Below are positions 7,559-41,542 of a stretch of 64,000 nucleotides of DNA, piece by piece. The position numbers and the translations under genes were made by a program. The notes beneath the pieces were generated by a model that was not told the origin of the DNA, did not search any database, and saw nothing but the letters and a program-made list of their open reading frames with translations. Source of the stretch: Alphaproteobacteria bacterium (GTDB lineage: Bacteria > Pseudomonadota > Alphaproteobacteria > Rs-D84); NCBI GenBank assembly GCA_009783145.1, contig WRHR01000001.1:492-64491 (forward strand), written 5' to 3'. The number at the start of each line of letters is the position of its first letter. The stretch's first letter is position 1.

Positions 7559-7650
7559 CGTCACCCCGGCGAAGGCCAGGGTCCATTGCGTCGCAGGCAA
7601 TCAATAATGCTGCGCAGCAGTAGGTCCCGGCCTTCGCCGGGATGACGACT
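7559..7650. repeat. Family-B palindromic element with terminal inverted arms (GTCACCCCGGCGAAGGCCAGGGTCC ... GGTCCCGGCCTTCGCCGGGATGACG)
   Basis: Inverted-repeat arms seen directly. Related hairpins occur at 6082, 32018, 36496, 36967, 38416, 59035 and 62330. Confidence 0.7.
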
Positions 7651-15140: not shown

Positions 15141-17144
15141 TTAGAACCCAAAGGTTATACCGGCTCTCCAGCTAACGTTGGCCTTGTCGCCTGTGGCGTA
15201 TGACGCGCCGACATTGACCAAGGTTCCGTTGTTGATGTAGTGGAACGCGCCCAGCGCAACGCCGAAGGCGTCACGATAGCCGCCCGTACCGATGGAGATC
15301 TGAGTATCGCCGCTGGAGCGAGCATTCGGCACCAACGCCGACATCGCCGCCAAGCCTGCGAATCCGGAACGAACTTCCTTGCTCAGGTCATCGACGCGGT
15401 TGTCCAGACGATCGATTTCAGCCAGAGTATATTCATACACATAGTTGATGGAGTTCGTCAGGTTCAAAGCGTAGTCTTTCGCGACCATGCCGGACTGGAT
15501 GTCCGCGCGCAGTTGGCGCACATCGCCGGTTTCCAGAACGGTTGCGACATTGTACGCGCCGTCGGTGGTCGGATCCATTACGTTTTCAGCACCGGTCGCC
15601 AAGTAAGACAAGGTCTTGATGGCTTCGTCTTCCGCACCGACCGCGCCCGAGTTGAACACCAGCGAACCAGTGTCTTCGTCGACGATCACAGAGTTCTGAC
15701 CGATGTGGATTTTGCTGGAGCCCGAATCCTTGCCGCCATCGCGACGGATTATGTCATCGATTTTTTCTTCGGTGGCAAGCAAGGCATCCGTCAGGTTGTC
15801 TATGCCGTCAAGGTGAGAGCGATAGTCGCTGCCATCCGCCGCATCCTGAAGTTTGGACACGTCGCCGATAACACTGTCAAGCGCCAGTATGCCTTCGGTC
15901 AGGTTGGTTGCGTCTTGAACGCCCACGTTGTTAGCAGCGGAGAAGTCCAGGTCGCCTTCGGCAGCCATCGCGCGGTTCTTTTCTTTAAGAACTTCCGCGT
16001 CGGTGTAGGTATTCGCCGCAGTCAAGGTGGCCGCGCCAACGCCGTCAGCATAGGTGTTCGCAGCCGTCAGTGTGGCAGCGTCGCCAGCGTCGGCATAGGT
16101 ATACAGCAAAGCCGCGGATGCCGCAACAGCAGCGTCAGCATAAGTGCTGGAATACGTTATGGCTTCAGCTTTCTTTTGGTCGGCATAGGTATACAGCAAC
16201 AGAGCCGAGTCCGCAACCGCAGCATCAGCATAGGTGTTGGCCGCTGTCAGAGTGCTTGCGCCTACTCCGTCAGCATAGGTGTACAATGCAAGCGTTGTGT
16301 CGGTAAGAGCCGTATCCAAAGCATTCAAGGCGCCCGCGACGCTCGTTTGACCATCAATGGCTCCGCCAGCTTGCAGCACGTCTTTGAAATCCTGGGTTGT
16401 GGAATCAAAGCCCAACTGTTCGCCCATGTAAGCTTCTGCTTTATCCCATGCGGCCGTGCCAAGCGCCATAACTTCGCTCTTGGTATAGTAGTCATCGAAC
16501 GCGGCATCCAAAGCGTTGAGCGCTCCGGCTACAGTTGTTTGACCGTCAATGACGCCACCGGCACTCAGCACATCCTTGAAGTCCTGAGTCGTGGAGTCAA
16601 AGCCCATTTGCGAACCCATATATGCTTCCGCTTTGTCCCAGGCAGCTTCGCCTTCTGCGCGCAGCGTGGATGCAAGAGTGGCCAAGTCAGTCGTGCTGGC
16701 TTTGGTGTCCATCGCGGTGTCCAAAGCATTGATAGCTTCGGCCACATTTTGCGCACCGTCAATGGTTCCGCCAGTGTTCAACACATCTTTGAAGTCTTGA
16801 GTTGTTGAATCATAGCCCATCTGCATGCTCAGTTCGGCTTCCGCAGCGTTCCAAGCGGCCAGACCGGCTGCCATTAACGTTGACTCTAACGAAGCCCCAA
16901 AGGCATCAACTTCAGCCTTGGTGTAAGCATCAGTAATGCCATAACCAGCTAAGGTTGTCGCGGCGTCAGCTTTGCCCGCTAACTGCGCGGTCGTAGCAAG
17001 ATCCGATAATTGTACACCACCGAGGTTGGGCATAGCAGATGCAGAACCATCGTCAACCATTATATCGCCCGCAGCCGCGAATGCGCCGGAATTAAATCCG
17101 ATGCCGACCGCAGCCACAAGTGCGATTAGACTTATTTTTTTCAT
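15141..17144 (-). CDS. Trimeric autotransporter adhesin (YadA-like)
   Basis: Signal peptide, stalk-like repeats (TLTAANTYADAAV..LLYTYAD), and a C-terminal YadA-anchor-like segment ...LSKEVRSGFAGLAAMSAL...GASYATGDKANVSWRAGITFGF. Confidence 0.75.
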   Translation of the reverse strand: MKKISLIALVAAVGIGFNSGAFAAAGDIMVDDGSASAMPNLGGVQLSDLATTAQLAGKADAATTLAGYGITDAYTKAEVDAFGASLESTLMAAGLAAWNAAEAELSMQMGYDSTTQDFKDVLNTGGTIDGAQNVAEAINALDTAMDTKASTTDLATLASTLRAEGEAAWDKAEAYMGSQMGFDSTTQDFKDVLSAGGVIDGQTTVAGALNALDAAFDDYYTKSEVMALGTAAWDKAEAYMGEQLGFDSTTQDFKDVLQAGGAIDGQTSVAGALNALDTALTDTTLALYTYADGVGASTLTAANTYADAAVADSALLLYTYADQKKAEAITYSSTYADAAVAASAALLYTYADAGDAATLTAANTYADGVGAATLTAANTYTDAEVLKEKNRAMAAEGDLDFSAANNVGVQDATNLTEGILALDSVIGDVSKLQDAADGSDYRSHLDGIDNLTDALLATEEKIDDIIRRDGGKDSGSSKIHIGQNSVIVDEDTGSLVFNSGAVGAEDEAIKTLSYLATGAENVMDPTTDGAYNVATVLETGDVRQLRADIQSGMVAKDYALNLTNSINYVYEYTLAEIDRLDNRVDDLSKEVRSGFAGLAAMSALVPNARSSGDTQISIGTGGYRDAFGVALGAFHYINNGTLVNVGASYATGDKANVSWRAGITFGF

Positions 17145-17375: not shown

Positions 17376-17620
17376 CTGGATTGCTTCGCCCGTTGGGCTC
17401 GCAATGACAATAAGGAGTGTGTTCAAGGCACACAGCCTAAAACAAACGCCGACTTGTCATTGCGAGGAGCGCGTAAGCGCGACGCGGCAATCCAGTCAAT
17501 AAAAAGGAATCATACACTATTCACTGGATTGCTTCGTCCGTCTTCGCTTCGCTACGCCGCGACTCGCAATGACAATAAGGAGTGGATTGCGGAGCACAGC
17601 GAACAATGACAAGGGAGAGA
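17376..17620. repeat. Cluster of family-A MITE-like elements (TIR CTGGATTGCTTCGC...GCTCGCAATGACAA / TTGTCATTGCGAG...GCAATCCAG). One full copy and further half copies.
   Basis: Seen directly. Full copies also occur at 17941-18095, 29338-29455, 59300-59415 and 60186-60292. Confidence 0.75.
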
Positions 17621-17626
17621 ATAAAT

Positions 17627-17935
17627 ATGAAAGAACATCATTACTATGTCTATATTCTTTTCAACAAACGCAACGGGACTCTTTACACCGGCGTGACGCG
17701 CGACATATTTCGCAGAACTGAAGAGCACAAAAGCAAAAAGCCTTTTGGATTCGCAGAAAAACACGGGGCGGACAAATTAGGCTATATTGAAAGCTATCAA
17801 TATGTTAACGATGCCATCTTCCGTGAAAAACAAATCAAGGCCGGATCGCGAAAAAATAAGCTGAAACTAATCGAATCGATGAATCCCGAATGGAAAGACC
17901 TGTGGTACGAGCTTGGGAATTTTGTTTGGAGTTAG
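17627..17935 (+). CDS. Small GIY-YIG nuclease-family protein (URI-domain type)
   Basis: HYYVYILFNKRNGTLYTGVTRDIFRRTEEH... carries the GIY-YIG signature. It is a paralogue of 36548..36928. Confidence 0.7.
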   Translation: MKEHHYYVYILFNKRNGTLYTGVTRDIFRRTEEHKSKKPFGFAEKHGADKLGYIESYQYVNDAIFREKQIKAGSRKNKLKLIESMNPEWKDLWYELGNFVWS

Positions 17936-22765: not shown

Positions 22766-25700
22766 GTGAAGAGAGAAGGCCGGAAAATCAGCTTGGTCGC
22801 GTTAATTATCGCCGCGTTCGTCGCGCCGGCAATGGGCGCCGATATAAACATAGTTACCTCCAAGCAATACGTCGACGCCAGGTTCAACCCTGCCGACGCC
22901 GCGACCAAGATTGCGGTCGTGACGCTTGACGCCAATAATCGCCCCATCGTAAAGAATGATAAGAGCATTTCAGACATACTCGGCGGCATAACTACAACGA
23001 CCACCGGTGCCGGTAATGCGGTTACAAGCATTTCCGACGACGGCGCGGGCCATATCACTGCGACCAAGGGCTCGACTTTCTTGACCGGCGAAACCGACCC
23101 GTCCATCGATACCACTGTCATGGGCACTGCGGCGACTGCCGCGGGAACGACTGGCACCGCGGGCAAGGTTTATACGGTTCAGAAAAATGCGGCCGGGAAA
23201 GCAGTCGTCAGCGTGCCTTGGATGGATAACAATACGACTTACACCGGCACCGCGCCAATTGATGTAACCGGTACTGTCGTGTCTCATAATACTTCCGGCG
23301 TAACAGCCGCAGCATATGGGCCCAGCGCTCCCGCGACTTTGACATCTGGCGGAACGTTTACCGTTCCCAGCGTGACTGTAGACGCAAGAGGACATGTCAC
23401 TGCTGCTGCTGCGCAAACCATGACTATGCCAAGCATACCTGCGGCTGCAAATAATGCCGCGATTAAAATAGCATATGCGACGACCGGCATAACGGCTGCA
23501 GGGAACTTTGCGACCGTCAATCAAGCGGCCGATAGTACTTTGACCTTGCATACTGTGGCAAGCACCGGAAGCTATAACGATCTGGGCAACAAGCCGTCGA
23601 TACCAGCGGCTCAGGTTAATAGCGATTGGAATGCAGGCAGTGGCGTTGCGCAGATACTGAACAAGCCGACAATACCGACTATAACTATGAACAACGCTGG
23701 GACTACGACGCCGAGCTTTTATGCTCCGACAGCAGGAGGCACTTCGGGTAATGTTCTGAAATCCACCGGGGCGACCAGCGCTCCGACTTGGGGGACATTG
23801 TCTTACTCTGATATTACTGGCACCCTGCCGCAGGTGCAATCTGACTGGGCTCAGGCGACAACGGGTGCGGCTGATTATATTAAGAACAAACCGACGATAC
23901 CAAATACTGCTGGCACTGGCATCAACATAACCGGCGCGACCATAACTAATACCGCGCCGAATTTGCAAACGAAGAATATTGTCGGAGCGGCGACCGGCGC
24001 GACTGCGAATGCGGCCTCTACGAACGGCAATACGTATTTGAATGCTGTTGAGAACGGCGCTGTGGTCAGCACTCACAAAATCGCTGGAGGCGGCGCGACT
24101 ACTGTTACTTCCGACGCTTCCGGAAACATAACCATCAGCAGCACGGATACGCCTCCTACGACATATACCGGCACCGCGCCTATTAATGTGACCGGTACTG
24201 TTGTATCTCATAATACTTCCGGCGTTACGGCGGCAACTTATGGTCCCGGCGCGAATGCGACATTGGCTTCGGGCGGAACATTTACTGTTCCGGAAGTTAC
24301 GCTCAATGCGACAGGACATGCGACCGGCGCCGCGACAAGAACATTTACCTTGCCGACTATATTAACCCATCCGGCCGGCGCGAACGGCACTTTCGGACCG
24401 GCTGCGAACGCGACACTGACTTATGGCGGCACATTCACAGTTCCGCAAGTAACCGTCGATGCGAACGGGCATACGACAACAGGCGCGACAAGAACATTTA
24501 CCATGCCGGCCGCGCCGACCGCTTATACTCACCCCAACGACGGCGGGGCTGGAACGTACGGTCCGGGAGCAGATGCAACATTAGTAAGCGGCGGCACGTT
24601 TACAGTTCCACAAGTAACCGTCAACGCTGCCGGGCACACGACTTCGGGCGCGACCAGAACGTTTACTATGCCCTCGATTCCCGCGGCTGCAAACAATGCA
24701 GCGATTAATATTGCATATGGCGCAACCGCAACAGCTCCGGGACAATTTGCGACTGTTGATCAATCAGCTGCTACAACTCTTACTTTGCATACTGTGGCAA
24801 GAACAGGAAGTTATGATGACCTGACTAACAGGCCGACTATTACGGATACTAAGATCAAGGCGTTCAACGGCAACGTTACTGCAGGCACGGCGGCGGCATA
24901 TACTCTTGCGACCACATATCCTGCGTTCACGGCGGCGGATATGGCTGACGGAACGGTAGTGTTTGCGACTCCGAACCAAACGAACTCCGCCGGCGCGACG
25001 TTATCCGTTGGCGGGCAGACAGCGCGTCCGATTTGGAATTCCGCGACCGGCGCGACTGTGGCGGCAAGCGCTTTGGTTGCGAACATGGCTTACTCGTTCA
25101 CGTATGACGCCACGAATAACAGATGGCATGCAAAGCAGCTGGATACAAACACGGTTTATACTCATCCGACCGGTGGTGCGAACGCTACGCTTGGTCCGGG
25201 GGCGAATGCGACGTTGACATTCGGCGGCACATTTACCGTTCCGCAAGTAACTGTCGATGCGAGCGGGCACACGACTTCTGGCGCGACAAGAACATTCACT
25301 ATGCCTGCGACGCCGACGGCTACGGGCACTGCGGGCGGCGATTTGACCGGAACTTATCCTAACCCGACTTTGACCACGACTGGCGCGGCTGCCGGAACTT
25401 ACGGCATTACGGCGGATGCGTCCGGATCCGGAGCAAGCTTTAAAGTTCCGAAATTCACTGTCGATACCAAGGGTCGTTTGAGCATGGCGGGAGAGAATAC
25501 CGTCACTATGCCGACGACAACGACTTATGCCGGCACCGCGCCAATTACCGTAAGCGGAAGCAGCATAACTCATGACGACTCCGGCGTAACGGCCGCAGCA
25601 TACGGGCCCAGCGCGCCCGCGACCTTGACATCCGGCGGAACGTTTACGATTCCGTCAGTTACCGTTAATGCAAAGGGCCACGTCACGGCGGCAGCAACTC

Positions 25701-28700
25701 AGACCATGACCATGCCTACGATACCGGCGGCGTTCACTCATCCGGCCGGCGCGAACGGCACATTCGGTCCGGCTGCGAATGCGACTTTGACTTATGGCGG
25801 CACATTTACAGTTCCGCAGGTAACAGTTGATGCGAATGGGCATACGACCACCGGCGCGACCAGAACATTCACTATGCCGGCGATTTACACTCATCCCAAT
25901 GACGGCGGAGCTGGAACATACGGTCCGGGCGCGGATGCTACTTTGGCAAGCGGCGGCACATTCACGGTTCCGTATGTAACGGTCAATGCGGCCGGTCATA
26001 CGACCGCCGGCGGAGTCAGAACATTTACCATGCCGACTTTATCGCCGAACTTGCAGACAAAAAATATCGTCGGCGCGACAACGGGGGCAACCGCGAACGC
26101 GGCTTCTACGAACGGCAACACATATTTGAACGCCGTTGAGAACGGCGCAGTGGTAAGCACTCACAAAATCGCGGGCAGCGGCGCGACTACCGTCATATCG
26201 GATGCGTCTGGCAATATAACTATCAACAGTCCCGCCGCCACGACATATACCGGAACTGCGCCGATTACCGTAAGCGGAAGCAGCATCACTCATGACAACT
26301 CCACCGTCACGGCTGGAAATTACGGTCCGGCGGCGAATGCGACGTTGACTTCCGGGGGAACATTTACAGTGCCGTATATCTCCGTCGACGCGAAGGGCCA
26401 TACAATCACAGGCACGGCGACAAGAACGTTTACGATGCCGACTATTACGGATACTAAGATCAAGGCGTTCAACGGGAATGTTACCGCGGGCACGGCGGCG
26501 GCTTACACTCTGGCAACTACATACCCGTCGTTTACGGCGGCAGATATGGCTGACGGAACGGTTGTGTTCGCAACTGTGAACCAGACGAACTCCGCAGGTG
26601 CGACGCTGGCTGTTGGCGGACAGACTGCAAGGCCGATTTTCAATACTGCGACTGGGGCTGCTGTGGCGGCGAGCGCGCTGATAGCGAACACGGCTTACTC
26701 GTTCACGTATGACGCCACGAATAACAGATGGCATGCCAAGCAGCTTGATACGAATACGTTAACGCGGGTTAATCTGAACAACGCGGGATTGAACAGCGGC
26801 GACATTACGGCGTTCTATGCTCCGACCGGGGGCGGCACGTCAGGCAACGTTCTGAAATCCACCGGGGCGACCAGTGCTCCGACTTGGGGGACTTTGAGCA
26901 CCAGCGACATCACCGATATAAATACATATGTTACGACGAACGCGGCCAAATCATTCAACGGGGCAACTACTACCTTGGCGACTAACGCTTACTCGCTCGC
27001 GGCAACGCAGCCGACGTTTGCGGCGGGGAATTTGGTCGCAGGCGCGGTGGTGTTCGCTACATTGAACGCGACGAATCCGTCGGCTGCTCCGACTTTGAAT
27101 GTGAATTCTACCGGCGCGAAGACCATCATGCTGAACGGCGCGGCGACGGGGGCGAGCGCTTTGGTTGCGAATGTCGCCTACTCATTCACTTACGACGGCA
27201 CGAACTGGAGCGCAAAGCAGCTTGATACGAATACGTTAACGCGGGTTAATCTGAACAACGCGGGATTGAACAGCGGAGATATTACGGCGTTCTATGCTCC
27301 GACCGGGGGCGGCACATCTGGCAATGTCTTGAAATCCACCGGAGCAACCAGTGCGCCGACTTGGGGGACGTTGTCTTATTCGGATATAACTGGAACTGCT
27401 CCGGACACCAAGATTAAGGCGTTTAATGGGAACCTTACCGCAGGCACGGCGGCGGCTTACACTCTGGCGACCACATATCCGACGTTTACAGCGGCGGATA
27501 TGGCTGACGGAACGGTTGTGTTCGCTACTGTGAACCAGATGAACTCCGCCAGTGCGACATTGTCTGTTGGCGGACAGACCGCGAGGCCGATTTTCCATAC
27601 TGAGACTGGCGCGGCCGTGAATGCGGGCTCATTGGGGACGTACAGGGCACATTCATTCACTTACGATGGCACGAACAACAGATGGTACGCAAAGCAACTT
27701 GATACGTACGAACATTCCGCATCAGGCAATCCTGGGCAATACGGTCCGACTTCCGGCGGAACATTGGCCTTCGGCGGCACATTTACCGTTCCATATATAG
27801 AGGGAAATGATCAAGGACATGTCATTGATTCTGGGGAAGTTACATTTACTCTGCCGGCGGCGCCGACTGTCACTGAAACCGATCCGCTGTTCAACGCCCT
27901 TGACGGGACAGCTGGGGCGACCACCGGGACTGCCCCGACATACCTTCTTACCACCGCCGCTGCAAAGAAGATAACTCTGACGACCGGCGCGCGCGTCATT
28001 ACGAAGATACATGCCGCCGCAACGGCCGCAGCCACTTTGAATGTAACCTCGAACAGTGTCGCTCTGGGGGCAAAGGCCATCTTTGTGAACGGTGCGGCGG
28101 TCAGCTCTACCAATCCGTTGAAAGCGAACGCGGTTTACGAATTCATATATGACGGGACTCAGTGGCAAGCGATTGGCACGGATACTATTCCGGATTTGAG
28201 CACAGTTGTTCCGACATACGAAACCGATCCGAAGTTCAACTACTTCGACGGCACGATTAGCGGAATGGCGCCGAGCTATACTCTTACCACGTCAAAAGTC
28301 ATACCTTCGCCATTGGCGGCTGGTGCCCGCGTGGTTGCAAAAATCCAAGGAACCGCAACATCTGCCGCAACTTTGACCGTTATTGCGAATGGCGTCAATC
28401 TCACTGCAAAGAACATATTTGTAAACGGCGCTGCAATCAGCTCGACCAATCCGTTGAAAGGCGCTGTTTACGAGTTCATCTATGATGGAACCCAATGGCA
28501 GATTATTGGCGCGATTCAAGATGTTGCAACAAATGAAGCCGACCCGAGGTTCTTCTTCTACGATGGGCAGACCGGCGGAACCGCGCCGAATTATACTCTT
28601 ACAACGACAAAGATCGTGCCCACCATGGTATCGGGCCCAGGCGCGCGCTTGGTCGTGAAATTTCATGCCGGCACGACATCCGCCGCGGCTTTGAACTTAA

Positions 28701-29293
28701 CCAGCGGAGTTAAACTCCTCGGCCAATATCCGATATTTGTGAACGCCGCCGCGGTAAGTCCGTCCAATCCGCTGAATGCCGCAGTTTACGAGCTCATCTT
28801 CGACGGCACTCAATGGCAGGCAATCGGTTCCGGCAGCGGCGGAGGCATATCTGCCGCGACGACGACTAAACTGGGCGGCGGAAAATTATTCTTTAATCCT
28901 TATCCTGGTATAGATCTGGGCGCAACAGAGACCGATTGTCTTGTGGACGAGACAGGGATGAAGGGTGAATGTCGTGCTTATCCGATCCAGCTTAATGACA
29001 CCGACGACAAAATGTATGTTGCAGTTCCGGATGCGTACACAGTAGTTAATAACGAATTTTATAACAACATACTTCCAAGCATTCCTGTCGCCACCATTGA
29101 ATACAGCGCGGGCAACGGAGGTTCGAACGGTATGATTCCAAAGATACCGTATGCCTGCCGCGCGGGACAGAATCCAAAGGTTACCTGCATGCTCGGATAT
29201 GGCGAATTTACCAGCAACGGCGCGAACGGCACGGGCGTTGATGCCGCCGGCGGATCCGGCACCGGATTCTATTGGGAAAAAGTCACACGTTGA
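22766..29293 (+). CDS. Giant repetitive secreted protein (2175 aa, GTG start). It carries more than 15 tandem repeats of about 45 aa (YGPxANATLTxGGTFTVPQVTVDANGHTTxGATRTFTMP) and C-terminal repeats of about 80 aa (...AKxIFVNGAAxSSTNPLKxAVYEFIYDGTQWQ).
   Basis: Single 6.5-kb ORF with a signal peptide and highly periodic Thr/Gly/Ala-rich repeats. Shadow ORFs on both strands are rejected. Confidence 0.7.
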   Translation: MKREGRKISLVALIIAAFVAPAMGADINIVTSKQYVDARFNPADAATKIAVVTLDANNRPIVKNDKSISDILGGITTTTTGAGNAVTSISDDGAGHITATKGSTFLTGETDPSIDTTVMGTAATAAGTTGTAGKVYTVQKNAAGKAVVSVPWMDNNTTYTGTAPIDVTGTVVSHNTSGVTAAAYGPSAPATLTSGGTFTVPSVTVDARGHVTAAAAQTMTMPSIPAAANNAAIKIAYATTGITAAGNFATVNQAADSTLTLHTVASTGSYNDLGNKPSIPAAQVNSDWNAGSGVAQILNKPTIPTITMNNAGTTTPSFYAPTAGGTSGNVLKSTGATSAPTWGTLSYSDITGTLPQVQSDWAQATTGAADYIKNKPTIPNTAGTGINITGATITNTAPNLQTKNIVGAATGATANAASTNGNTYLNAVENGAVVSTHKIAGGGATTVTSDASGNITISSTDTPPTTYTGTAPINVTGTVVSHNTSGVTAATYGPGANATLASGGTFTVPEVTLNATGHATGAATRTFTLPTILTHPAGANGTFGPAANATLTYGGTFTVPQVTVDANGHTTTGATRTFTMPAAPTAYTHPNDGGAGTYGPGADATLVSGGTFTVPQVTVNAAGHTTSGATRTFTMPSIPAAANNAAINIAYGATATAPGQFATVDQSAATTLTLHTVARTGSYDDLTNRPTITDTKIKAFNGNVTAGTAAAYTLATTYPAFTAADMADGTVVFATPNQTNSAGATLSVGGQTARPIWNSATGATVAASALVANMAYSFTYDATNNRWHAKQLDTNTVYTHPTGGANATLGPGANATLTFGGTFTVPQVTVDASGHTTSGATRTFTMPATPTATGTAGGDLTGTYPNPTLTTTGAAAGTYGITADASGSGASFKVPKFTVDTKGRLSMAGENTVTMPTTTTYAGTAPITVSGSSITHDDSGVTAAAYGPSAPATLTSGGTFTIPSVTVNAKGHVTAAATQTMTMPTIPAAFTHPAGANGTFGPAANATLTYGGTFTVPQVTVDANGHTTTGATRTFTMPAIYTHPNDGGAGTYGPGADATLASGGTFTVPYVTVNAAGHTTAGGVRTFTMPTLSPNLQTKNIVGATTGATANAASTNGNTYLNAVENGAVVSTHKIAGSGATTVISDASGNITINSPAATTYTGTAPITVSGSSITHDNSTVTAGNYGPAANATLTSGGTFTVPYISVDAKGHTITGTATRTFTMPTITDTKIKAFNGNVTAGTAAAYTLATTYPSFTAADMADGTVVFATVNQTNSAGATLAVGGQTARPIFNTATGAAVAASALIANTAYSFTYDATNNRWHAKQLDTNTLTRVNLNNAGLNSGDITAFYAPTGGGTSGNVLKSTGATSAPTWGTLSTSDITDINTYVTTNAAKSFNGATTTLATNAYSLAATQPTFAAGNLVAGAVVFATLNATNPSAAPTLNVNSTGAKTIMLNGAATGASALVANVAYSFTYDGTNWSAKQLDTNTLTRVNLNNAGLNSGDITAFYAPTGGGTSGNVLKSTGATSAPTWGTLSYSDITGTAPDTKIKAFNGNLTAGTAAAYTLATTYPTFTAADMADGTVVFATVNQMNSASATLSVGGQTARPIFHTETGAAVNAGSLGTYRAHSFTYDGTNNRWYAKQLDTYEHSASGNPGQYGPTSGGTLAFGGTFTVPYIEGNDQGHVIDSGEVTFTLPAAPTVTETDPLFNALDGTAGATTGTAPTYLLTTAAAKKITLTTGARVITKIHAAATAAATLNVTSNSVALGAKAIFVNGAAVSSTNPLKANAVYEFIYDGTQWQAIGTDTIPDLSTVVPTYETDPKFNYFDGTISGMAPSYTLTTSKVIPSPLAAGARVVAKIQGTATSAATLTVIANGVNLTAKNIFVNGAAISSTNPLKGAVYEFIYDGTQWQIIGAIQDVATNEADPRFFFYDGQTGGTAPNYTLTTTKIVPTMVSGPGARLVVKFHAGTTSAAALNLTSGVKLLGQYPIFVNAAAVSPSNPLNAAVYELIFDGTQWQAIGSGSGGGISAATTTKLGGGKLFFNPYPGIDLGATETDCLVDETGMKGECRAYPIQLNDTDDKMYVAVPDAYTVVNNEFYNNILPSIPVATIEYSAGNGGSNGMIPKIPYACRAGQNPKVTCMLGYGEFTSNGANGTGVDAAGGSGTGFYWEKVTR

Positions 29294-30345: not shown

Positions 30346-32463
30346 TTACTTTATCATCTCAGCAACTAATTCCGACAGCGGGCGGTTTATGAATTCCGGA
30401 TCGCCTTTGATTTCCGGCGCGCCTTTTTTAATCGCGGTATCGCATGGATGATCGTCTTCCAGCCAGTTGCTCAGCAGGTCCCCTGCCAGAAATCCTATGC
30501 CCGCGCCTGCGACCAAGGACAGCCCTCCGGTAAAAGGCGCAAGCAATATCATTCCGATGCCGGTCGTGGCGGCGGTGCGCTCTATAAGGCTGCGGCCGTT
30601 GAACTTGATATCGGGCTCGGCCATGTTTCCGGTGAACTCCATAGAATTCACTATATTGCCGGTAAAGCTGATTTTCAACCCCCGCACCGGCGTCGATACC
30701 ATCGACGCGTCCAAAGTTTCTTTTCCCAAATCCGCCCTGCCCGCCGCGCGCATATTCACGGCAGAGGTTTGCAAGGCGATTCCGCGCTCGGTCTCGACAA
30801 CTCCGCGACGGATTTTCAAGTTTACGACGGCGCATGAAACATCGACTTTGTCATACTTGTTCTTGGCGGTCACCATATCTTGCACGCTATGGCGCAGAGA
30901 TGTCAGAAAGTCCTGGCCGTACAAGTATTCCGCCGCGTCCGGCAGTGCGGTTCCGGCCCCAACGCTGCGCACTTGGAGGGGGCCGGCGACGCTTGCCATC
31001 AATTCGGACAAGTCCTTTCCGCGTCCTTGCAGATAAAACTCGAAGTCCGCCGGAAGGCCTGTTATGATATTTTTTTCGCCCACGCTTTCCAGTATCTTTC
31101 CCGCCTGAATGCCTTGCCCCATCCCCGCTCCGCGCGCGACAACCGCGCCTTCGTCGTCATAGGCGAGCAAAGCGGCGCGAACTTTTCCGCCCGCGAATCC
31201 GGCGTCCATACGAACGGAAAGCTCGCCGTCCTTAACATTCGCGCGCGCGCTTATATTCTCAACCGACAAGTTGCGATACATGACCAAGCTTGCGAGATCG
31301 ACCGCAATATCCGCGTTCGCAAGGTTCAGGTATTCGGAATAAAGCGGCGTATCCTTGAACACGTTCAGCGGCCGGTTCGGGCGCTTCCAAGGCGTCTTCG
31401 CGGTGCCGTACAGCTCTGTGAAAACTTCGCCCAATATGAATTTTTTAGATCTCAGCTTCGCGGATATCATGGGCTTCTTGCCGCCCCAACTGATATTGCC
31501 CGAAACCGACAAGTCGCTTTTTCCGAACGATATCGAAGACTGATGCAGCGTTAGCTTGCTGTGCCCCATACCGCCGGAAATGTTCAACGTCATCGGAGCA
31601 ATCTTCGGAACATCCGGATCAAAGCGTTTTAAAATCGCCTGGGCGTCCGCAATCTTTCCTTTGACTATAAAATCTATGGGCAGCTTTGACGTCTGCTCCA
31701 GCGCCAAGTTCGCGATAACCGGCGTCAGCTTGTTCGCGATCGCGACGCGCACGGGATAAACCTTGCGCGCCGCGTCCAAAGGCAGCAATGACGCGATGAA
31801 CGAATATTCCTGCCCGTCGTCCAGCGCGACACGCCCGACGTATTCTATATATCCGTCGGTCTTCTTATACCGCAGAAAGATTTCTTCCGCCTCGAACTCC
31901 GTCTTTCCGCCCGCGTCGATGAATACGAACTTCGGGTTTTCCATTTTGACGGAATCGATGCCCCAATCCGAATCAAAGGGAAATTTTGCCGGGCCGTCTT
32001 CTTGATTAGTCGTATTTGTCATTCCCGCGAAGGCGGGAACGCGCGAAGACTCCAAGGAATATTCGCCCTCGGCGTTTTCCTCCAGATATACCAGCGGGTT
32101 TACAAGTGTCAAATCGCTGACGGACGCCGTCGTACCCAAAAGCGAAAGAAGATTTATTCTCGCCTCGACCTGATCTATGCGGACGCCGTCTTCATTGGCG
32201 GCCCAATCCTTTGCCGGAATCGCTACGTCGGACAAGACGACGCGAGGCGTCAGCGAGAACTTCCAATGAATCTCGCCGCGGATTTCGACGGGCAGCCCGG
32301 TGGCGCTTGATAGAGCATGCGCGACCTCGCCGCGAAGGGTTTCAAGATTCACCCGCGACAGAGCGACAAACAGCGAAACGACCAGCCCGACAAGAACTAT
32401 CGCGAAGATGCGCGCAAAGCGAAAGAAGTCGCGCTTAAAAAATCGCATCAGTACAAATTTCAT
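30346..32463 (-). CDS. asmA: AsmA-family outer-membrane assembly protein
   Basis: N-terminal TM anchor, then the AsmA-like N-domain (SRVNLETLRGEVAHALSSATGLPVEIRGEIHWKFSLTPRVVLSDV) and a long beta-rich body. A family-B hairpin sits in frame at 32018-32044 (RVPAFAGMTN). Confidence 0.55.
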   Translation of the reverse strand: MKFVLMRFFKRDFFRFARIFAIVLVGLVVSLFVALSRVNLETLRGEVAHALSSATGLPVEIRGEIHWKFSLTPRVVLSDVAIPAKDWAANEDGVRIDQVEARINLLSLLGTTASVSDLTLVNPLVYLEENAEGEYSLESSRVPAFAGMTNTTNQEDGPAKFPFDSDWGIDSVKMENPKFVFIDAGGKTEFEAEEIFLRYKKTDGYIEYVGRVALDDGQEYSFIASLLPLDAARKVYPVRVAIANKLTPVIANLALEQTSKLPIDFIVKGKIADAQAILKRFDPDVPKIAPMTLNISGGMGHSKLTLHQSSISFGKSDLSVSGNISWGGKKPMISAKLRSKKFILGEVFTELYGTAKTPWKRPNRPLNVFKDTPLYSEYLNLANADIAVDLASLVMYRNLSVENISARANVKDGELSVRMDAGFAGGKVRAALLAYDDEGAVVARGAGMGQGIQAGKILESVGEKNIITGLPADFEFYLQGRGKDLSELMASVAGPLQVRSVGAGTALPDAAEYLYGQDFLTSLRHSVQDMVTAKNKYDKVDVSCAVVNLKIRRGVVETERGIALQTSAVNMRAAGRADLGKETLDASMVSTPVRGLKISFTGNIVNSMEFTGNMAEPDIKFNGRSLIERTAATTGIGMILLAPFTGGLSLVAGAGIGFLAGDLLSNWLEDDHPCDTAIKKGAPEIKGDPEFINRPLSELVAEMIK

Positions 32464-35856: not shown

Positions 35857-36423
35857 ATGGCAAGCTATACGGCAAACGATATGCGCGTGGGATGGGCGAT
35901 TTCGCATAACGGGAAAAGATATTCGGTGACAAGCATTACAAAGGTAAAGCCGGGCAAAGGCGGCGCGTTCGTCCAGGCGGACTTGCGCGATATCGACACG
36001 GGGAACAAGGGCGGCGACCGCTGGCGGTCCGAGGACAAGGTTGAAAAGCTGATGGTGGAAGACGTGGAGTGCCAGTTCCTGTACGGCGACGGGACGGACA
36101 GCTATTTTATGAACTTGTCGGATTACGAGCAATTTACGATGCCGTCTGAGGCGCTGGGGGAACAAGTGAAGTTCCTGCAGCCCGAGATGAAGGTCAAGGC
36201 TAATTTTGTGGAAGGCCACCCGATATCGATAACTCTGCCGAAAACGGTTATCGCGACGGTGGAAGAGACCGAGCCTGCGTTAAAAGGCCAGACTGCGGCG
36301 GGCGGGGGCAAGCCGGCCATATTGGACAACGGCATCCGCATAACAGTTCCTGTATTCGTGGAGATGGGCGAAAAAGTTGTGGTTAATACCGAAACTTTGG
36401 AGTACGTGGAGAGAGCGAAATAG
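35857..36423 (+). CDS. efp: Elongation factor P
   Basis: MASYTANDMRVGWAISHNGKRYSVTS...KPGKGGAFV...KVV. RBS gaaggag. Followed by a terminator. Confidence 0.9.
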   Translation: MASYTANDMRVGWAISHNGKRYSVTSITKVKPGKGGAFVQADLRDIDTGNKGGDRWRSEDKVEKLMVEDVECQFLYGDGTDSYFMNLSDYEQFTMPSEALGEQVKFLQPEMKVKANFVEGHPISITLPKTVIATVEETEPALKGQTAAGGGKPAILDNGIRITVPVFVEMGEKVVVNTETLEYVERAK

Positions 36424-36424
36424 G

Positions 36425-36452
36425 AAGCCCGCGCAAACGCGCGGGTTTTTTT
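36425..36452 (+). terminator. Rho-independent terminator GCCCGCGCAAACGCGCGGG followed by TTTTTTTG
   Basis: Seen directly 3' of efp. Confidence 0.75.
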
Positions 36453-36495
36453 GTTGGGGTGTTTTTATTTTTAACAAAAGTTTAAAAAAACTTTT

Positions 36496-36993
36496 GTCAC
36501 TCCTGCGTAGGCAGGAGTGGGCCCAGACAGTGCAAGCGTAAGCGAGCCTATAAACCTTTCACTATTATTTCCCCACAATCCAGCTTTCTAAAAAATTCTT
36601 CAGTCATTCCTTCTTTGGGCAAGATTTCATCCAATTCCGCCGCCAAATCCTTCCATTCCGGATTCATCGTTTCAATTAATCTATACTTCCAAGCCCGTTT
36701 CCATTTTTTAAGCGCTTTTTCTCTATCAATCGCCTTATCAACATATTGAAACCATTCGTAATAACCAAGTTTCTTCGTATTGTGTTCTTGCGAGTTTCCT
36801 TTTATCAATCCCAGTTTATGCTCCATAACACGACGTTCTAAATCGTTGGTCATACCGATGTACGTTGCCTGAGCGCGTTCATTGAACATGATATAAACCC
36901 AAAAATTGTATTCTTTGAATTCTTTCATAAAAAGAGAATAGCGAAGTTCGGAAATATTTTCAAGACCCACTCCTGCCTACGCAGGAGTGACAA
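36496..36993. mobile_element. Candidate mobile cassette: a GIY-YIG gene bounded by perfect 27-bp terminal inverted repeats TGTCACTCCTGCGTAGGCAGGAGTGGG. Each repeat is itself a family-B hairpin.
   Basis: The left TIR lies at 36496-36522. The right TIR at 36967-36993 is its exact reverse complement. The gene's start and stop codons abut the repeats. Confidence 0.45.
36548..36928 (-). CDS. Small GIY-YIG nuclease-family protein (URI-domain type)
   Basis: NFWVYIMFNERAQATYIGMTNDLERRVMEH...NPEWKDL. Paralogue of 17627..17935. Confidence 0.7.
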   Translation of the reverse strand: MKEFKEYNFWVYIMFNERAQATYIGMTNDLERRVMEHKLGLIKGNSQEHNTKKLGYYEWFQYVDKAIDREKALKKWKRAWKYRLIETMNPEWKDLAAELDEILPKEGMTEEFFRKLDCGEIIVKGL

Positions 36994-37024
36994 AAATTTT
37001 TCTTACGAAAAATTTTCTAAAATA

Positions 37025-37062
37025 AAAAATCGCCGCGATTGCGGCGATTTTTCATTCCGGTT
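37025..37062. terminator. Bidirectional terminator with the stem ATCGCCGCGATTGCGGCGAT, identical to 14032-14051. It lies just 3' of the DGR target gene.
   Basis: Seen directly. Confidence 0.7.
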
Positions 37063-37075
37063 ACTGTTTTTTCGT

Positions 37076-37810
37076 TTACCGTTTTCTCGCGTTCAGTTCT
37101 TTTACACGTTGCTCGACGAACCGGCGAACGCCCGCCCAGAGATCCGCGCCCTCGTTCAGGTTGCGCGACGAGTGGTCCAGCGCGATCTGCGCGCAATCCG
37201 AACGGGCCCTGTTCCAAGCGCCCAGCGAAACATCCTCATCTTTATCCTCAAACAATCTTGCTATCTCGCCTGTCTTCGTGTTATACAAATAATACATCGC
37301 TACTGCGCCGTCCGATTCCCCCAGCTTTGTCTTCTTTACTTTCTTTGCGTATGTGCTTTCCTTGATACCAATCCCAGGGCCGGCGGTTATTCCGCACAGT
37401 TTCCAATCTGAATCTTTCAGCTCCGGCTGATTATCCACGAACTTCTTCGCACGCTTCATTTCCGCCTGGTCTTTATATATGGTATGGTTATTGTCGCCAT
37501 ACGCCGTGTTCAGGTAGAAATTATCCGCATTGTTGCTGTATACTCCATCCCCACCGTTAATGATATCGTACGCATAGCCCACAAGTTGGCTGTTCTGGTT
37601 GATGATCGTCGTCATCTTTGCCATTGTTTCTTTCAGATCAAGGGGTTTTACCTGGGATTCCAACCGCTCTAACCTTGCGGCCAATTCTTTGTTTTGAATT
37701 TCCAAATTTTTGACTTTAATGCTCAAGCTTTTATGACCGCGAAAAAAGAACTCGTAAACTTTATTTTCCGCAATCTGCTGCTTCAACGTTTTCGGCTTTT
37801 CATTAGACAT
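37076..37810 (-). CDS. DGR variable (target) protein: coiled-coil N-terminus, with the C-terminal VR encoding an Asn-rich CLec/FGE-sulfatase-like ligand-binding tip
   Basis: The C-terminal 40 codons (LGAWNRARSDCAQIALDHSSRNLNEGADLWAGVRRFVEQ) form a 120-bp VR matching the TR at 38055-38174. All differences sit at TR adenines. Confidence 0.8.
   Translation of the reverse strand: MSNEKPKTLKQQIAENKVYEFFFRGHKSLSIKVKNLEIQNKELAARLERLESQVKPLDLKETMAKMTTIINQNSQLVGYAYDIINGGDGVYSNNADNFYLNTAYGDNNHTIYKDQAEMKRAKKFVDNQPELKDSDWKLCGITAGPGIGIKESTYAKKVKKTKLGESDGAVAMYYLYNTKTGEIARLFEDKDEDVSLGAWNRARSDCAQIALDHSSRNLNEGADLWAGVRRFVEQRVKELNARKR
37113..37232 (-). repeat. DGR variable repeat (VR), 120 bp, at the 3' end of the target gene
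   Basis: Reverse complement is 110/120 identical to the TR. The 10 mismatches all correspond to A in the TR (A to C/G/T). Confidence 0.85.
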
Positions 37811-38054
37811 TTTTATATCCTTTGGTTGTTTGCCCGCGAATTGTACCGCAACTTATTATTTTGTCAAGCAATTTTTGCCGTTTATTTTTGTCATTCCCAA
37901 AAATTCGCGCAAATTCCCCATTTTGACGGCTTTAATAATAAACATCTATAGAATTGTTTGTCAAATCGCAAAATATATCGCTGGCGCGAATCGGACTAAA
38001 TTCCCAGACTGGGCCACAGGCCGTATATCGCAAAAAACCGTTGGTTTGCCGCCG

Positions 38055-38174
38055 TGTTTCGCTGGGCGATTGGAACAGGAACCGTTCGAATTGCGCGCAG
38101 AACGCGCTGAACCACTCGTCGAACAACCTGAACGAGGGCACGAATCTCTGGGCGGGCGTTCGCCGGTTCGTCGA
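38055..38174 (+). repeat. DGR template repeat (TR), 120 bp and AAC-rich, in sense orientation with the RT
   Basis: TGTTTCGCTGGGCGATTGGAACAGGAACCGTTCGAATTGCGCGCAGAACGCGCTGAACCACTCGTCGAACAACCTGAACGAGGGCACGAATCTCTGGGCGGGCGTTCGCCGGTTCGTCGA. It encodes GDWNRNRSNCAQNALNHSSNNLNEGTNLWAGVRRF. Confidence 0.85.
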
Positions 38175-38509
38175 TACTTGTTGTCAAAAGTTTAGCCAAC
38201 CCGGGGGACGCGGGGTTTCCCCGCCATAGCCGACACACAAGGCTGGATATGCGACCTTCTTGGGGCCAGGCCCCGGGAAAACACGATAACCGGGAAAGCC
38301 GCCACCCTTCGCGCTGGCGCGCTACGGGTGGCAGGCCCCCTGTGGTGCAATAACGCAAACGGCCGCGGCTTTGATTCATTTTTACAAAATCGCAAAGTGA
38401 TTTTGTCATTGCGGTTCCGGCCTTCGCCGGAATGACAAACCGGGTCCGCAATGACAATTTTTTGTTTTACAAAAAATTGCAAAAATAAAAAACAAAAAAA
38501 GAACCAACT

Positions 38510-38809
38510 ATGACCGATGAAATCCATTCCTTTTCTGACTTCGCCGACAGCCGCCCTGCCCTGGACGGCAGAAAGCGCCGCATCGACGAAGTCCTGAACA
38601 AGCCCATCACCGTTCGCGGGCACAAAATCATCGCTTCGAAAAAAAACGCGGGCGAAATGTGCCTGCACTTGCAATTCGAAATGGACGGCGAGCTGTGCAT
38701 ACTCTTCACCGGCAGCGCCGTTCTTATCGACCAATGCGAAAAGTACGCCGATAAAATCCCGTTCCGCACCAGCATCGTCCGCATAGATAAATATTTTTCG
38801 TTCTCGTGA
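38510..38809 (+). CDS. DGR-associated accessory ORF (99 aa), translationally coupled to the RT. It is not obviously Avd-like.
   Basis: Its stop overlaps the RT ATG (ATGA). It lies between the TR and the RT, where accessory genes usually sit. The sequence looks beta-rich rather than a helical bundle. Confidence 0.4.
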   Translation: MTDEIHSFSDFADSRPALDGRKRRIDEVLNKPITVRGHKIIASKKNAGEMCLHLQFEMDGELCILFTGSAVLIDQCEKYADKIPFRTSIVRIDKYFSFS

Positions 38810-39822
38810 CTTCGCTTTGGTCTGATTTTATATCCCATGAAAATTTCGCGCTTGCGCTGAAAAATGCAACCCGCGGGCGCAAGACCAAGCCTTCTATCGC
38901 GCATTTCTTGAAAAACGCGGACGAGAATTTGGAAAACCTGCGCCAGCTTGTCATCGCCGGAGGGTTCAAGACCTCGCCCTATCGCACCATGGAAATCACG
39001 GATCCCAAGCGCCGCACAATATACATTCTTCCTTTCTGCCCCGACCGATTGCTTCATCACGCCTTGATGAATATTCTTGCCCCGATATGGGAGGCCGGAT
39101 TCATCCGAGATTCTTATGCCTGCATCACGGGACGCGGCCTGCACTCCGCCAGCCGGCGCACCATGCAATTCGTACGCCGGAATCAATACGTGCTGAAATG
39201 CGACATCAGAAAATTCTATCCCAGCATCGATCATAATATAATGTATGAAATCGTGAAGAAGTCTCTTCCGCCCGGCAACGAGAATATCCTGGCCATCCTG
39301 CATGACATTATATACTCAACTGCAGGCGGCAAGAACCTTCCCATAGGAAACCTCTGCAGCCAATGGATGGGAAACCTGTACCTGCACGAAATGGATATAT
39401 ATATAAAGCATGAATTGCGCGTGCGAGATTATTTGCGATACAGCGACGACTTTTGCCTGTTTTCAAACGACAATGCCCAACTGCGCGGGTGGCGCGACAA
39501 AATCCGAGAATTTCTGGCCGCGCGATTGGGGCTGATATTTTCCAAGGCCGAGATTTTTCCAGTGTCGAACGGCCTGGACTTTGTCGGATACCGGCATTTC
39601 AAGGATTTCGTCCTTTTGCGCAAGCGCACGTTGAAAAAGATAAAGTCGCGCATGCTGGAAATCGGCGAGATGAAAAATATAGCACCCGCAAACGCGGAGC
39701 GCATTCGCGGCCAGGTTGCCGCGGCGCACGGCTGGCTGAAATTCGCGTGCTCTTATAACCTGCGCAAAAAGCTGCGGTTCGAAACACTAAAGAAAAAAGT
39801 CGGGATTATTGTTTCCAGTTGA
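38806..39822 (+). CDS. Diversity-generating retroelement reverse transcriptase
   Basis: RT motifs 1-5 are present: RRTIYILPFCPDRLLHHAL, SYACITGRGLHSA, YVLKCDIRKFYPSIDH, the DGR-specific LPIGNLCSQWMGNLYLHEMD, and YLRYSDDFCLF (YxDD). Confidence 0.9.
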   Translation: MTSLWSDFISHENFALALKNATRGRKTKPSIAHFLKNADENLENLRQLVIAGGFKTSPYRTMEITDPKRRTIYILPFCPDRLLHHALMNILAPIWEAGFIRDSYACITGRGLHSASRRTMQFVRRNQYVLKCDIRKFYPSIDHNIMYEIVKKSLPPGNENILAILHDIIYSTAGGKNLPIGNLCSQWMGNLYLHEMDIYIKHELRVRDYLRYSDDFCLFSNDNAQLRGWRDKIREFLAARLGLIFSKAEIFPVSNGLDFVGYRHFKDFVLLRKRTLKKIKSRMLEIGEMKNIAPANAERIRGQVAAAHGWLKFACSYNLRKKLRFETLKKKVGIIVSS

Positions 39823-39870
39823 CAAATCATATTTATTTGCTAACTTGTTCGAAAACAAAGGATCAAACAG

Positions 39871-40563
39871 ATGCAATTAACATACGGTCCGTTCCAGGCG
39901 CTGGAACAGCAGGAATTCAAACAAGGGAACGGGAGCTTTGAAATCGAGGCTTTAAGATTCGCCAGATTGTTGCACAAACTGTCATTCGAAAGAAAAATCA
40001 ATTTCAACCACATTTTCAAGTTCTTATCCGCCAGGCCCGATAACGAATATTGGTTCGCCGACAACAACGGCAACCCTTTCGCCGGCATCATCGCCTTGGA
40101 ATACCACACCAAGGCCTTGGCGGACTCGCGATTCGAAATGCACAAGAAGTATGACGATCTGCGATTGGTTTTATCCGGAGAAACAACCATACTTCTTTTG
40201 GATAAAAGCCTGCTTAAATGGGGCAAATTCAATCAGGCGGACGATGTGGCCTTATCCGAAGAAAATTGCTTGGAAGCGCTTTGGCCGCGCAGCTTGCAAT
40301 TCGAGAAAATTCACACGTCGCCCGCGAATCAAAAGATTGACTCTGTCAAGCTTACGGCAAACGGGCTGAACGTTGGCGCGGAAGCGGGCTTGTTATACCA
40401 TATCCCCGCCGGGATGCCTCATGCGCCGGGAATGAATCCGGATAAGCTCGGCGCCTTTGATAAAGTAAGAGAACTGGTCGTAAAATACGACGCGCGGAAA
40501 AGAACTACTCATGACTGGCAAGACAAAGAAATAGGTTATTTTATCTCGGAAGTGAAACGTTAA
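39871..40563 (+). CDS. Hypothetical protein (230 aa) immediately downstream of the DGR RT
   Basis: Clean ORF with a terminator at 40565-40592. No family recognised. Confidence 0.4.
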   Translation: MQLTYGPFQALEQQEFKQGNGSFEIEALRFARLLHKLSFERKINFNHIFKFLSARPDNEYWFADNNGNPFAGIIALEYHTKALADSRFEMHKKYDDLRLVLSGETTILLLDKSLLKWGKFNQADDVALSEENCLEALWPRSLQFEKIHTSPANQKIDSVKLTANGLNVGAEAGLLYHIPAGMPHAPGMNPDKLGAFDKVRELVVKYDARKRTTHDWQDKEIGYFISEVKR

Positions 40564-40648
40564 AAATCCGTCGCGGCGCGACGGATTTTTTCTATTTGCC
40601 CACCCCTCGCCTTTATGCTATGCTTTCCCCGCTTATAAAGGAAAAAAT

Positions 40649-41542
40649 ATGAACGACGTTATAATTCTTGGCAGCGGGCCGGCCGGCCTAACCGCGGCCT
40701 TATACTGCGCGCGCGGCGGAAAAAGCGCGCTTGTCTTGGGCGGAAATACGCTTGGCGGGCAAATGGCGACAATTGCGGAATTGGAAAACTATCCCGGATT
40801 TTTGGGCAGCGGATTGGAACTTGCCGAGAAAATGAAACTTCAAGCCGAAAAATTCGGCGCAAAGGTCATCCTTGCTTCCGCGAAAGCGATCAAAACCAAA
40901 GACTCCGGATTTGCCGTCATAACCGACGACGGCAAGGAATGTGAGTCTCGCGCCGTCATCATCGCGACCGGCGCAAGTCCCAGAAAGCTGGAAATCGCCG
41001 GCGCGCGCGAATTCTTGGGCCGCGGGGTTTCCTATTGCGCGACCTGCGACGGATTCTTTTACAGCGGCCGCGACGTGATCGTCATCGGCGGCGGAAACGC
41101 CGCGCTGAACGATGCCTTGTACCTTGCCAACATCGCAAAGTCCGTCAAGATCGTATATCGCAAGGATTCTTTCGCCCGTGCCGAGAAAATCTTGGTAGAT
41201 CGCATAAACGCGACCGGCAATATATTCGTCCTTTGGAATACCGAACTGGCCGAGGTCGGCGGCGACGAGTCAGGAGTAACTTTTGCAATAACAACGGGCG
41301 GAGATAAAATCGCAGCGAGCGGGGTTTTCGTCGCAATCGGGCACGAGGCAAATACCGATTATCTGACCGAAGATATAAAGCGCGACGCAATGGGCCGCTT
41401 GGCGCCGAACGCCCTGCCCCAGGGGATTTTCGTCGCAGGCGACGTGCGCTCTGAGCTAAAAATGCAAATCGCGACCGCCGTCGGCACGGGCTGCGAATGC
41501 GCAATGGACGCGGTGGCGTATTTGAATTCAATTGAAAATTAA
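40649..41542 (+). CDS. trxB: Thioredoxin-disulfide reductase
   Basis: GSGPAGLTAALY FAD motif, CATCDG redox-active disulfide, and GGGNAA NADPH motif. Confidence 0.9.
   Translation: MNDVIILGSGPAGLTAALYCARGGKSALVLGGNTLGGQMATIAELENYPGFLGSGLELAEKMKLQAEKFGAKVILASAKAIKTKDSGFAVITDDGKECESRAVIIATGASPRKLEIAGAREFLGRGVSYCATCDGFFYSGRDVIVIGGGNAALNDALYLANIAKSVKIVYRKDSFARAEKILVDRINATGNIFVLWNTELAEVGGDESGVTFAITTGGDKIAASGVFVAIGHEANTDYLTEDIKRDAMGRLAPNALPQGIFVAGDVRSELKMQIATAVGTGCECAMDAVAYLNSIEN

Follow-up and report, generated by a model that had tools for sequence, protein, structure and literature searches.

A chromosomal diversity-generating retroelement in an uncultured alphaproteobacterium, with a predicted OB-fold accessory protein and a structured RNA next to its template repeat

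To our knowledge, the mechanism of diversity-generating retroelements (DGRs) is known almost entirely from the Bordetella system, built from the reverse transcriptase (RT) bRT, Avd and a spacer RNA. A locus in an uncultured alphaproteobacterium (contig WRHR01000001.1 of assembly GCA_009783145.1) raises the question of whether another small protein and another RNA can hold the places of these partners. The locus occupies positions 37076-39822 of the 64,000-nucleotide (nt) stretch that was analysed (contig positions 492 to 64,491 of the forward strand, hereafter the window). An original prediction made from the letters of the sequence described it as a complete DGR, comprising a target gene with its variable repeat (VR), a template repeat (TR), an accessory open reading frame (ORF) and an RT gene. 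Every one of these elements was found, and judged by its sequence the locus is a genuine, intact chromosomal DGR. The full reading, which we consider probable, is a chromosomal DGR in which an RNA adjacent to the TR and an OB-fold protein, here called ORF99, stand in place of Avd.

The VR lies on the minus strand (37113-37232; codons 194-232 of the 244-codon target ORF) and the TR on the plus strand (38055-38174). An ungapped comparison of the reverse complement of the VR with the TR gave 110 identities over 120 positions, reproducing the repeat pair as it had been predicted, and an independent repeat search listed this pair as inverted repeat I1 (120 nt, 92% complementary). The claim that every mismatch sits at a TR adenine was borne out by the tally from this pairwise re-alignment: all 10 mismatches fell on adenines of the TR, replaced in the VR by G (six positions), C (three) or T (one). 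With 25 adenines per 120-nt TR, the hypergeometric probability of this outcome is 2.8e-8. The non-A positions of the TR were all unchanged in the VR (95/95), and similarity between the repeats breaks off sharply at both edges. Scanning the whole window with these 95 positions recovered 95/95 at the TR and the VR only. The best other site reached no more than 45/95, so the window contains one VR, and no second VR was found in it.

The composition of the TR was examined in the reading frame of the target. Codon positions 1 and 2 hold all 25 adenines; the expected richness in AAC took the form of seven AAC and two AAT codons (nine AAY codons). No stop codon can be reached by any A-to-N change in the TR, and about 1e14 peptide variants are reachable from its adenines. 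The last 29 nt of the VR (37113-37141) correspond to a stretch that is A-free in the TR, GC-rich and the same in both repeats; by these sequence features it forms the 3' end of the repeats and resembles a site where mutagenic homing is initiated (IMH). Past this stretch the flanks differ (GCAACG next to the VR, TACTTG next to the TR). Two independent assemblies carry identical ORF99 and RT genes (L148, Logan SRR5248970_62668; L149, JGI24705J35276_12135905), and exact-sequence look-ups placed their ends 100 nt and 244 nt upstream of ORF99, respectively. Exact look-ups for VR variants in other assemblies returned no contig that spans the TR or reaches the VR. The position of these contig ends is compatible with breaks induced by repeats or by heterogeneity, and is no proof of either.

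The RT gene (38806-39822, plus strand) encodes a 338-aa protein with matches in PDB, PHROG and Pfam and with the motifs LPIGNLCSQ and YSDD. Motif 4 of the DGR RT clade reads I/LGxxxSQ where group II intron RTs have QGxxxSP, and the clade carries YxDD. The two motifs named in the original prediction, LPIGNLCSQWMGNLYL and YSDDF, were both located in this ORF. The best solved relative of the protein is Bordetella bRT (8ub7_A; E 3.4e-43, 151 bits, residues 9-285), against an E-value of 7.9e-15 for the best group II intron RT in the solved-structure search. PHROG 1423 ('reverse transcriptase') matched with an E-value of 4e-98, and the sole Pfam match was RVT_1. The protein sided with DGR RTs and not with those of group II introns or retrons, and by its motifs and closest relatives it is a DGR-type RT.

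Eight related loci, from metagenome-assembled genomes (MAGs) of Alphaproteobacteria or Rickettsiales, encode RTs that are 49-75% identical to the one in the window. Six of these eight, together with L009, which was reached through its ORF99 homolog, have TR/VR pairs of their own (L001, L002, L003, L006, L007, L008 and L009), and the mismatches in these seven pairs are only or almost only at A. The TR-side flank described above is kept across the related loci; their targets mostly belong to families other than that of the window target. The dnaN gene of L008 is 87% identical to the dnaN of the window, and both genomes keep the DGR beside dnaN. The RT of L008 has been relocated to the far side of the target, the arrangement of TR, RNA and ORF99 with a divergent target being unchanged. 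Locus L009 (4672-6294, Rickettsiales MAG) contains a target homolog with its VR, a TR, the RNA element and ORF99, with no RT within 6 kb on either side; the RT has either disappeared or works in trans.

ORF99 (38510-38809, plus strand; GenBank MCL1891701.1, 'hypothetical protein') encodes 99 aa with an isoelectric point (pI) of 6.8, and its stop codon overlaps the start of the RT gene (GTGA). The protein has a conserved N-terminal motif, SFSDFA, and gave no sequence match in Pfam, NCBIfam, PHROG or PDB. Its structure model is a beta-barrel with one helix (predicted local distance difference test, pLDDT, 86), predicted to be an OB fold most like that of single-stranded DNA-binding proteins (SSBs). 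OB-fold binders of single-stranded nucleic acids (SSB/PriB-like) consist of a five-stranded beta-barrel with a helix between strands 3 and 4. A BFVD fold search with the ORF99 model returned viral RT proteins as top matches, including A0A8S5RXI3 and A0A8S5MQF5.

Two known proteins were tried as relatives of ORF99 and rejected. Avd is a PF05635-type four-helix bundle (Avd/23S-IVP hidden Markov models, HMMs) of about 110-130 aa and is basic. Aligned by hhalign with Bordetella Avd, a profile of 22 ORF99 homologs gave a probability of 0.13%; there was no HMM match, and the pI of 6.8 and the beta-barrel model point the same way. Avd proteins have a mean pI of 9.5 (Wu et al. 2018, PMC5758913). The other candidate, Bbp4, the small ORF that follows Bordetella brt, showed no similarity by hhalign. 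An Avd family member was found neither among the five cassette and flanking ORFs (Pfam, NCBIfam) nor among ten further small ORFs of the window. Likewise, the 149 small ORFs beside RT-ORF99 pairs elsewhere contained no recurring Avd family among the 25 of 32 families listed. ORF99 is not an Avd and belongs to a large unnamed family with a predicted OB fold.

The size of this family and its association with DGRs were then quantified. A word-indexed search found 37 homologs. When 1.84 billion representatives were searched with a profile, 1003 ORF99 clusters reached E<=1e-3 and 553 passed the stricter limit of E<=1e-10, with nearly all members about 95-110 aa long. Scans detected ORF99 in >408 metagenome stretches and in 53 IMG/VR viral contigs. 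Linkage was counted in 109 non-redundant ORF99 loci, 13 of which were too short to decide. An RT homolog was found beside ORF99 in 88 of the 96 decidable loci, in all but one of the 88 on the same strand and within 800 nt, and 83 of the 88 adjacent RTs carried [LIVM]GxxxSQ. A-biased repeat pairs, defined by at least 80% of mismatches at A on the ORF99 strand, were present in 78 of 133 ORF99 loci, many of them on short contigs. Natural fusion proteins were also found, made of an RT domain followed by an ORF99 domain (P0075, P0128 and P0138). Of eight loci (the window and seven related ones), seven have ORF99 on the strand of the TR and 175-445 nt downstream of it. This linkage to the TR persists where the RT is encoded on the opposite strand (L003, L008) and where none lies within 6 kb (L009). 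Across bacteria, phages and archaeal viruses, ORF99 is kept next to an RT or a TR at 34-85% identity. Because family size, linkage to RT and TR, A-biased repeats, fusions and viral homologs combine, ORF99 is a genuine DGR component, and the predicted accessory ORF proved to be a real, conserved and DGR-linked gene. In a separate observation, a conserved ORF of about 100 aa was seen directly after ORF99 in 34 loci with the order RT-ORF99 (e.g. L027:1749-2048 and L038:982-1299), with no counterpart in the window. A representative (L038:982-1296) had no Pfam match; this ORF may be a further cassette component or a small target.

A structured RNA element begins at the 3' end of the TR (38169-38296, plus strand). 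It was delineated with alignments A2, A6 and A7, RNAalifold and covariance model R1, and is made of a linker (TACTTG..AAGTTTnGCCAA), a long-range helix P1 (CCCGG/CCGGG) and two hairpins, P2 and P3. Invariant single-stranded stretches of the element are ACACAAGGCTGGATATGC and AAAACACGATAA, and ACACAAGGCUGGAUAUGC is also a stretch of it. All related loci show the same layout after the TR, namely TACTTG...AAGTTTnGCCAA-CCCGG-GGGAC-hairpin-ACACAAGGCTGGATATGCnnCC-hairpin-AAAACACGATAA-CCGGG-hairpin, and in L007 the element stays with the TR although the TR sits downstream of the RT. RNAalifold recovered P1, P2 and P3. In a ten-sequence alignment, 86% of cells pair and the covariation score was 0.40, compared with 0.14 for shuffled controls (0/500 reached the observed value) and 0.07-0.14 when the pairing partners were slid. 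The ranges given for paired cells, score and shuffled score are 86-87%, 0.40-0.45 and 0.14-0.16. Among 23 model-aligned sequences, P1 alternates between CG and UA (12:11), GC and AU (20:3) and GC and CG (10:8), with 96.5% of cells paired. An extra pairing between TACTTG and CAAGG is possible, with one compensatory change (L002). Model R1 scored 126 bits at 38169-38296, as high as any family member, and gave weaker matches upstream of ORF99 or RT in more distant loci. It had no match in the loci of Bordetella phage BPP-1 or of the archaeal viruses ANMV-1 and vir525, nor on 43 further viral contigs, and no Rfam family was found for the spacer between TR and ORF99 (36000-41000, E<=1). The covariation argues that a structured RNA directly 3' of the TR is conserved in the related loci. 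The RNA 3' of the BPP-1 TR positions the primer, binds Avd via a stem-loop, binds the RT and is needed for priming (Handa et al., bioRxiv 10.1101/2023.10.23.563531). The RNA at 38169-38296 may play a role like that of the BPP-1 spacer, by analogy and not by demonstrated homology.

Two further features lie between the RNA element and ORF99. Directly after P1, a single-sequence fold and inspection revealed a GC-rich branched hairpin, P4 (38292-38372, plus strand), and a hairpin of variable sequence is present at this position in all related loci. The other is a palindromic insertion resembling repetitive extragenic palindromic (REP) elements (GTCATTGCGGTTCCGGCCTTCGCCGGAATGAC...; 38403-38457, inverted repeat I13). 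It accounts for the longer TR-ORF99 spacer of the window, is absent at this position in related loci and lies outside the conserved cassette. The REP-like element GTCATTCCnGnC-TTCG-GnCnGGAATGAC occurs in at least four copies in the window (38403-38457, 6081-6102, 7625-7646 and 32018-32039), and a near-identical copy was seen inside hairpin P2 of the L001 RNA element (L001:5520-5550).

The target gene (37076-37810, minus strand; GenBank MCL1891700.1, 'hypothetical protein') encodes a 244-aa protein with a pI of 9.1, and the VR is located near its C-terminus. The N-terminal region is coiled-coil-like and has no signal peptide. Searches of Pfam, NCBIfam, PHROG and PDB, profile search included, gave no match, and 5.8 billion proteins yielded only about 7 homologs; the family has a conserved tail after the VR, EQRVKELNARKR. 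DGR targets with a C-type-lectin fold (Mtd/TvpA type) display their VR residues on the binding face. Comparison of the target with Mtd and AdtA by hhalign gave 0.1%, and the only lead was a 'GAWN' string shared at the start of the VR. By analogy with characterized DGR targets, the protein is expected to be a ligand-binding surface. A GC-rich hairpin followed by a T-run (37021-37056, inverted repeat I15) is found about 57 nt downstream of the VR and is probably the terminator of the target gene. The target and the TR are separated by an AT-rich divergent intergenic region (37811-38054) with promoter-like sites, all of them consensus matches only: TTGACA-16-TACAAT on the minus strand (37867-37840) points at the target gene, and weaker plus-strand sites (37830-37888) point at the TR.

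We propose that the plus-strand unit made of the TR, the structured RNA, ORF99 and the RT would be transcribed, and that the RNA 3' of the TR would fold into a three-helix junction able to recruit the RT and the OB-fold protein ORF99, which would hold the place of Avd in the Bordetella phage system. The RT would then copy the TR into complementary DNA (cDNA) from near the conserved ...TTCGA/TACTTG junction, and we infer that the cDNA start site lies near this boundary between TR and RNA. Misincorporation would take place opposite the 25 template adenines, and the cDNA would replace the VR at the 3' end of the divergent target gene. Up to 17 codons of the 39-codon C-terminal segment could be rewritten in this way, giving ~1e14 peptides with no stop possible.

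Several points weigh against a working DGR with ORF99 and the RNA in place of Avd. The present activity of the element and the binding of ORF99 to the RT and to RNA or cDNA are steps that we infer. Folding of the VR-downstream regions of 8 loci revealed no DGR-style hairpin directly after the VR, only the terminator-like one ~57 nt away. The single-sequence fold of the RNA is unexceptional (z -1.3 to -1.7), so the support for its structure is comparative, and alignment A7, from which the larger covariation count comes, was itself fitted to the model, a bias in favour of the structure. The AlphaFold2 (AF2) model of the target, built from a 7-sequence alignment, has a pLDDT of 42 and is unusable. 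Finally, 8 of the 96 decidable loci contain ORF99 with no adjacent RT despite at least 1.1 kb on each side. These eight loci, together with the proposed nature of the role of ORF99, would also suit a functional DGR in which ORF99 is a mere passenger with an unrelated single-strand-binding role, the RT and the RNA acting alone as in the accessory-free 'architecture A'; an accessory gene is missing from about 29% of the DGRs that have been catalogued (Wu et al. 2018, PMC5758913). We regard a passenger as unlikely, since ORF99 stays by the RT or the TR in bacteria, phages and archaeal viruses over the divergence given above. The fusions of ORF99 to RT in several proteins, the overlap of its stop with the RT start in the window and its presence beside the TR when the RT moves also speak against it.

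It is slightly less likely again that the locus is a fossil, a DGR that was once active and is now inert, with the A-specific differences as relics. The same target protein sequence was found on two contigs, and a lower activity has been reported for chromosomal non-phage settings such as this one (review PMC8632793), both of which would fit an inert element. Drift after inactivation would add mismatches at non-A positions, so the 95/95 identity of the repeats at these positions speaks against a fossil. The three ORFs are intact, the catalytic YSDD is present, the RNA element scores as high as any member of its family, and adenines at codon position 3 and codons prone to become stops are still avoided in the TR. 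That the locus is no DGR, and combines a group II intron, retron or defence RT with an unrelated 120-nt inverted duplication, is scarcely credible. NCBIfam does list group II, retron and Drt models for the RT, but all are far below their cut-offs: the group II model TIGR04416 reached 104 of the 300 bits that its cut-off demands, the retron model 63 of 235, and no other model scored as high as the group II one. bRT is the best solved relative by 28 orders of magnitude in E-value, and in 36000-41000 Rfam (E<=1) reported only weak terminator-like chance matches, with neither a group II intron RNA nor a retron RNA among them. The adenine-specific mismatches (P about 3e-8) argue in the same direction, and their pattern recurs in the seven related loci. 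A DGR that uses the TR-adjacent RNA and ORF99 is the reading that we retain.

The neighbours of the cassette are uvrC, efp and a GIY-YIG gene to one side, with a DUF386-like ORF, trxB, dnaN and ppa to the other; this setting is a chromosomal housekeeping neighbourhood and not a prophage. The identical ORF99 and target proteins in GenBank come from a MAG named 'Alphaproteobacteria bacterium' (locus tags FWF97_00170/00175). ORF230 (39871-40563, 230 aa, weak DUF386/YhcH match), located after the RT and before trxB, was ruled out as part of the cassette because related loci have no counterpart of it; the two are probably unrelated. Next to the target gene, the minus strand carries the GIY-YIG nuclease-family gene (Pfam E 2e-16) at 36548-36970. 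With a 36-nt inverted repeat at each end (36486-36521 paired with 36966-37001, at 97% complementarity), this gene resembles a mobile cassette of small size; the window has another GIY-YIG ORF at 17582-17935. Elsewhere in the window, two repeat-rich giant ORFs (22766-29293, 2175 aa; 14-3427, at least 1137 aa) had no Pfam match, and near them is a 667-aa ORF with a YadA-type anchor (15141-17144); these may be giant surface proteins.

As a DGR, the locus adds one example to a well-known kind; what is new is the different cofactor with its own RNA scaffold. It leads to a large RT lineage (~1000 protein clusters) with a different helper, which is small, neutral, predicted to have an OB fold and sometimes fused to the RT. 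We lean slightly towards the view that the ORF99 family represents a second widespread design of DGR ribonucleoprotein (RNP), so far unnamed in the DGR literature, in which a monomer-sized OB-fold cofactor, sometimes RT-fused, and a TR-adjacent three-helix RNA replace the Avd pentamer and the Avd-binding stem-loop. This design would be common to bacterial chromosomes, phages and archaeal viruses, including ANMV-1. The locus also provides a defined minimal system (a 338-aa RT, a 99-aa cofactor and an RNA of about 330 nt) for asking what an accessory contributes to priming and adenine mutagenesis, a better annotation rule for DGRs that now look 'accessory-free', and possibly a simpler chassis for engineered targeted mutagenesis. 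By analogy, it marks the 244-aa target as a candidate ligand-binding surface that would undergo programmed hypervariation in an alphaproteobacterial lineage associated with the gut.

The accessory classes that the literature searched describes are Avd, HRDC, MSL and CH1, along with the accessory-free architecture A (Wu et al. 2018, PMC5758913), and these four are also the only helpers named in reviews. HRDC is a helical domain, MSL proteins are MutS-like and 112-283 aa long, and CH1 proteins are 160-169 aa long with a pI of 4.7 (same source). ORF99 resembles the CH1 and MSL classes in being small, adjacent to TR and RT and conserved within an RT lineage; with 99 aa and a pI of 6.8 it is set apart from HRDC, MSL and CH1 by their descriptions. 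It may be identical to one of the minor candidate genes PAG1-4 of the same authors. No DGR linked to an OB-fold accessory was found in the literature searched. Components on different strands and RTs acting in trans are variations already known (Wu et al. 2018, PMC5758913).

A likeness was also found in viruses of archaea. Among these, ANMV-1 carries the first archaeal-virus DGR to be described. ANMV-1 (KP703175; Paul et al. 2015, PMC4372165) and Methanosarcinales virus vir525 (BK063673) both have an ORF99 homolog directly after the DGR RT (L143:4501-4797 and L144:4489-4776, respectively; 45-47% identity, E 2e-20 and 2e-17), annotated 'hypothetical protein', and thus have the same class of accessory gene as the window. 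In the paper on ANMV-1, the legend to a figure gives one ORF the label 'Avd' and describes no homology for it (PMC4372165). These viral loci differ from the window in having the order target-TR-RT-ORF99 on one strand, a viral genome, a tail-fibre-like target and no match to the R1 RNA.

The best-characterized relative is the Bordetella BPP-1 DGR (mtd-avd-TR-Sp-brt; cryo-EM RNP 8UB7). The BPP-1 Avd is a 128-aa basic four-helix-bundle pentamer, whereas the window encodes a 99-aa neutral protein with a predicted OB fold. The order is TR-RNA-accessory-RT in the window and avd-TR-Sp-brt in BPP-1; the window target is on the opposite strand, the R1 model does not match the BPP-1 spacer, and the window DGR is chromosomal, while that of BPP-1 acts in a phage tail-fibre gene. 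Despite these differences, the two systems have homologous RTs (151 bits over residues 9-285) and A-only differences between TR and VR. In both, the VR is at the 3' end of the target gene, the 3' end of the repeats is GC-rich and free of A, and a structured RNA follows the TR directly on its 3' side.

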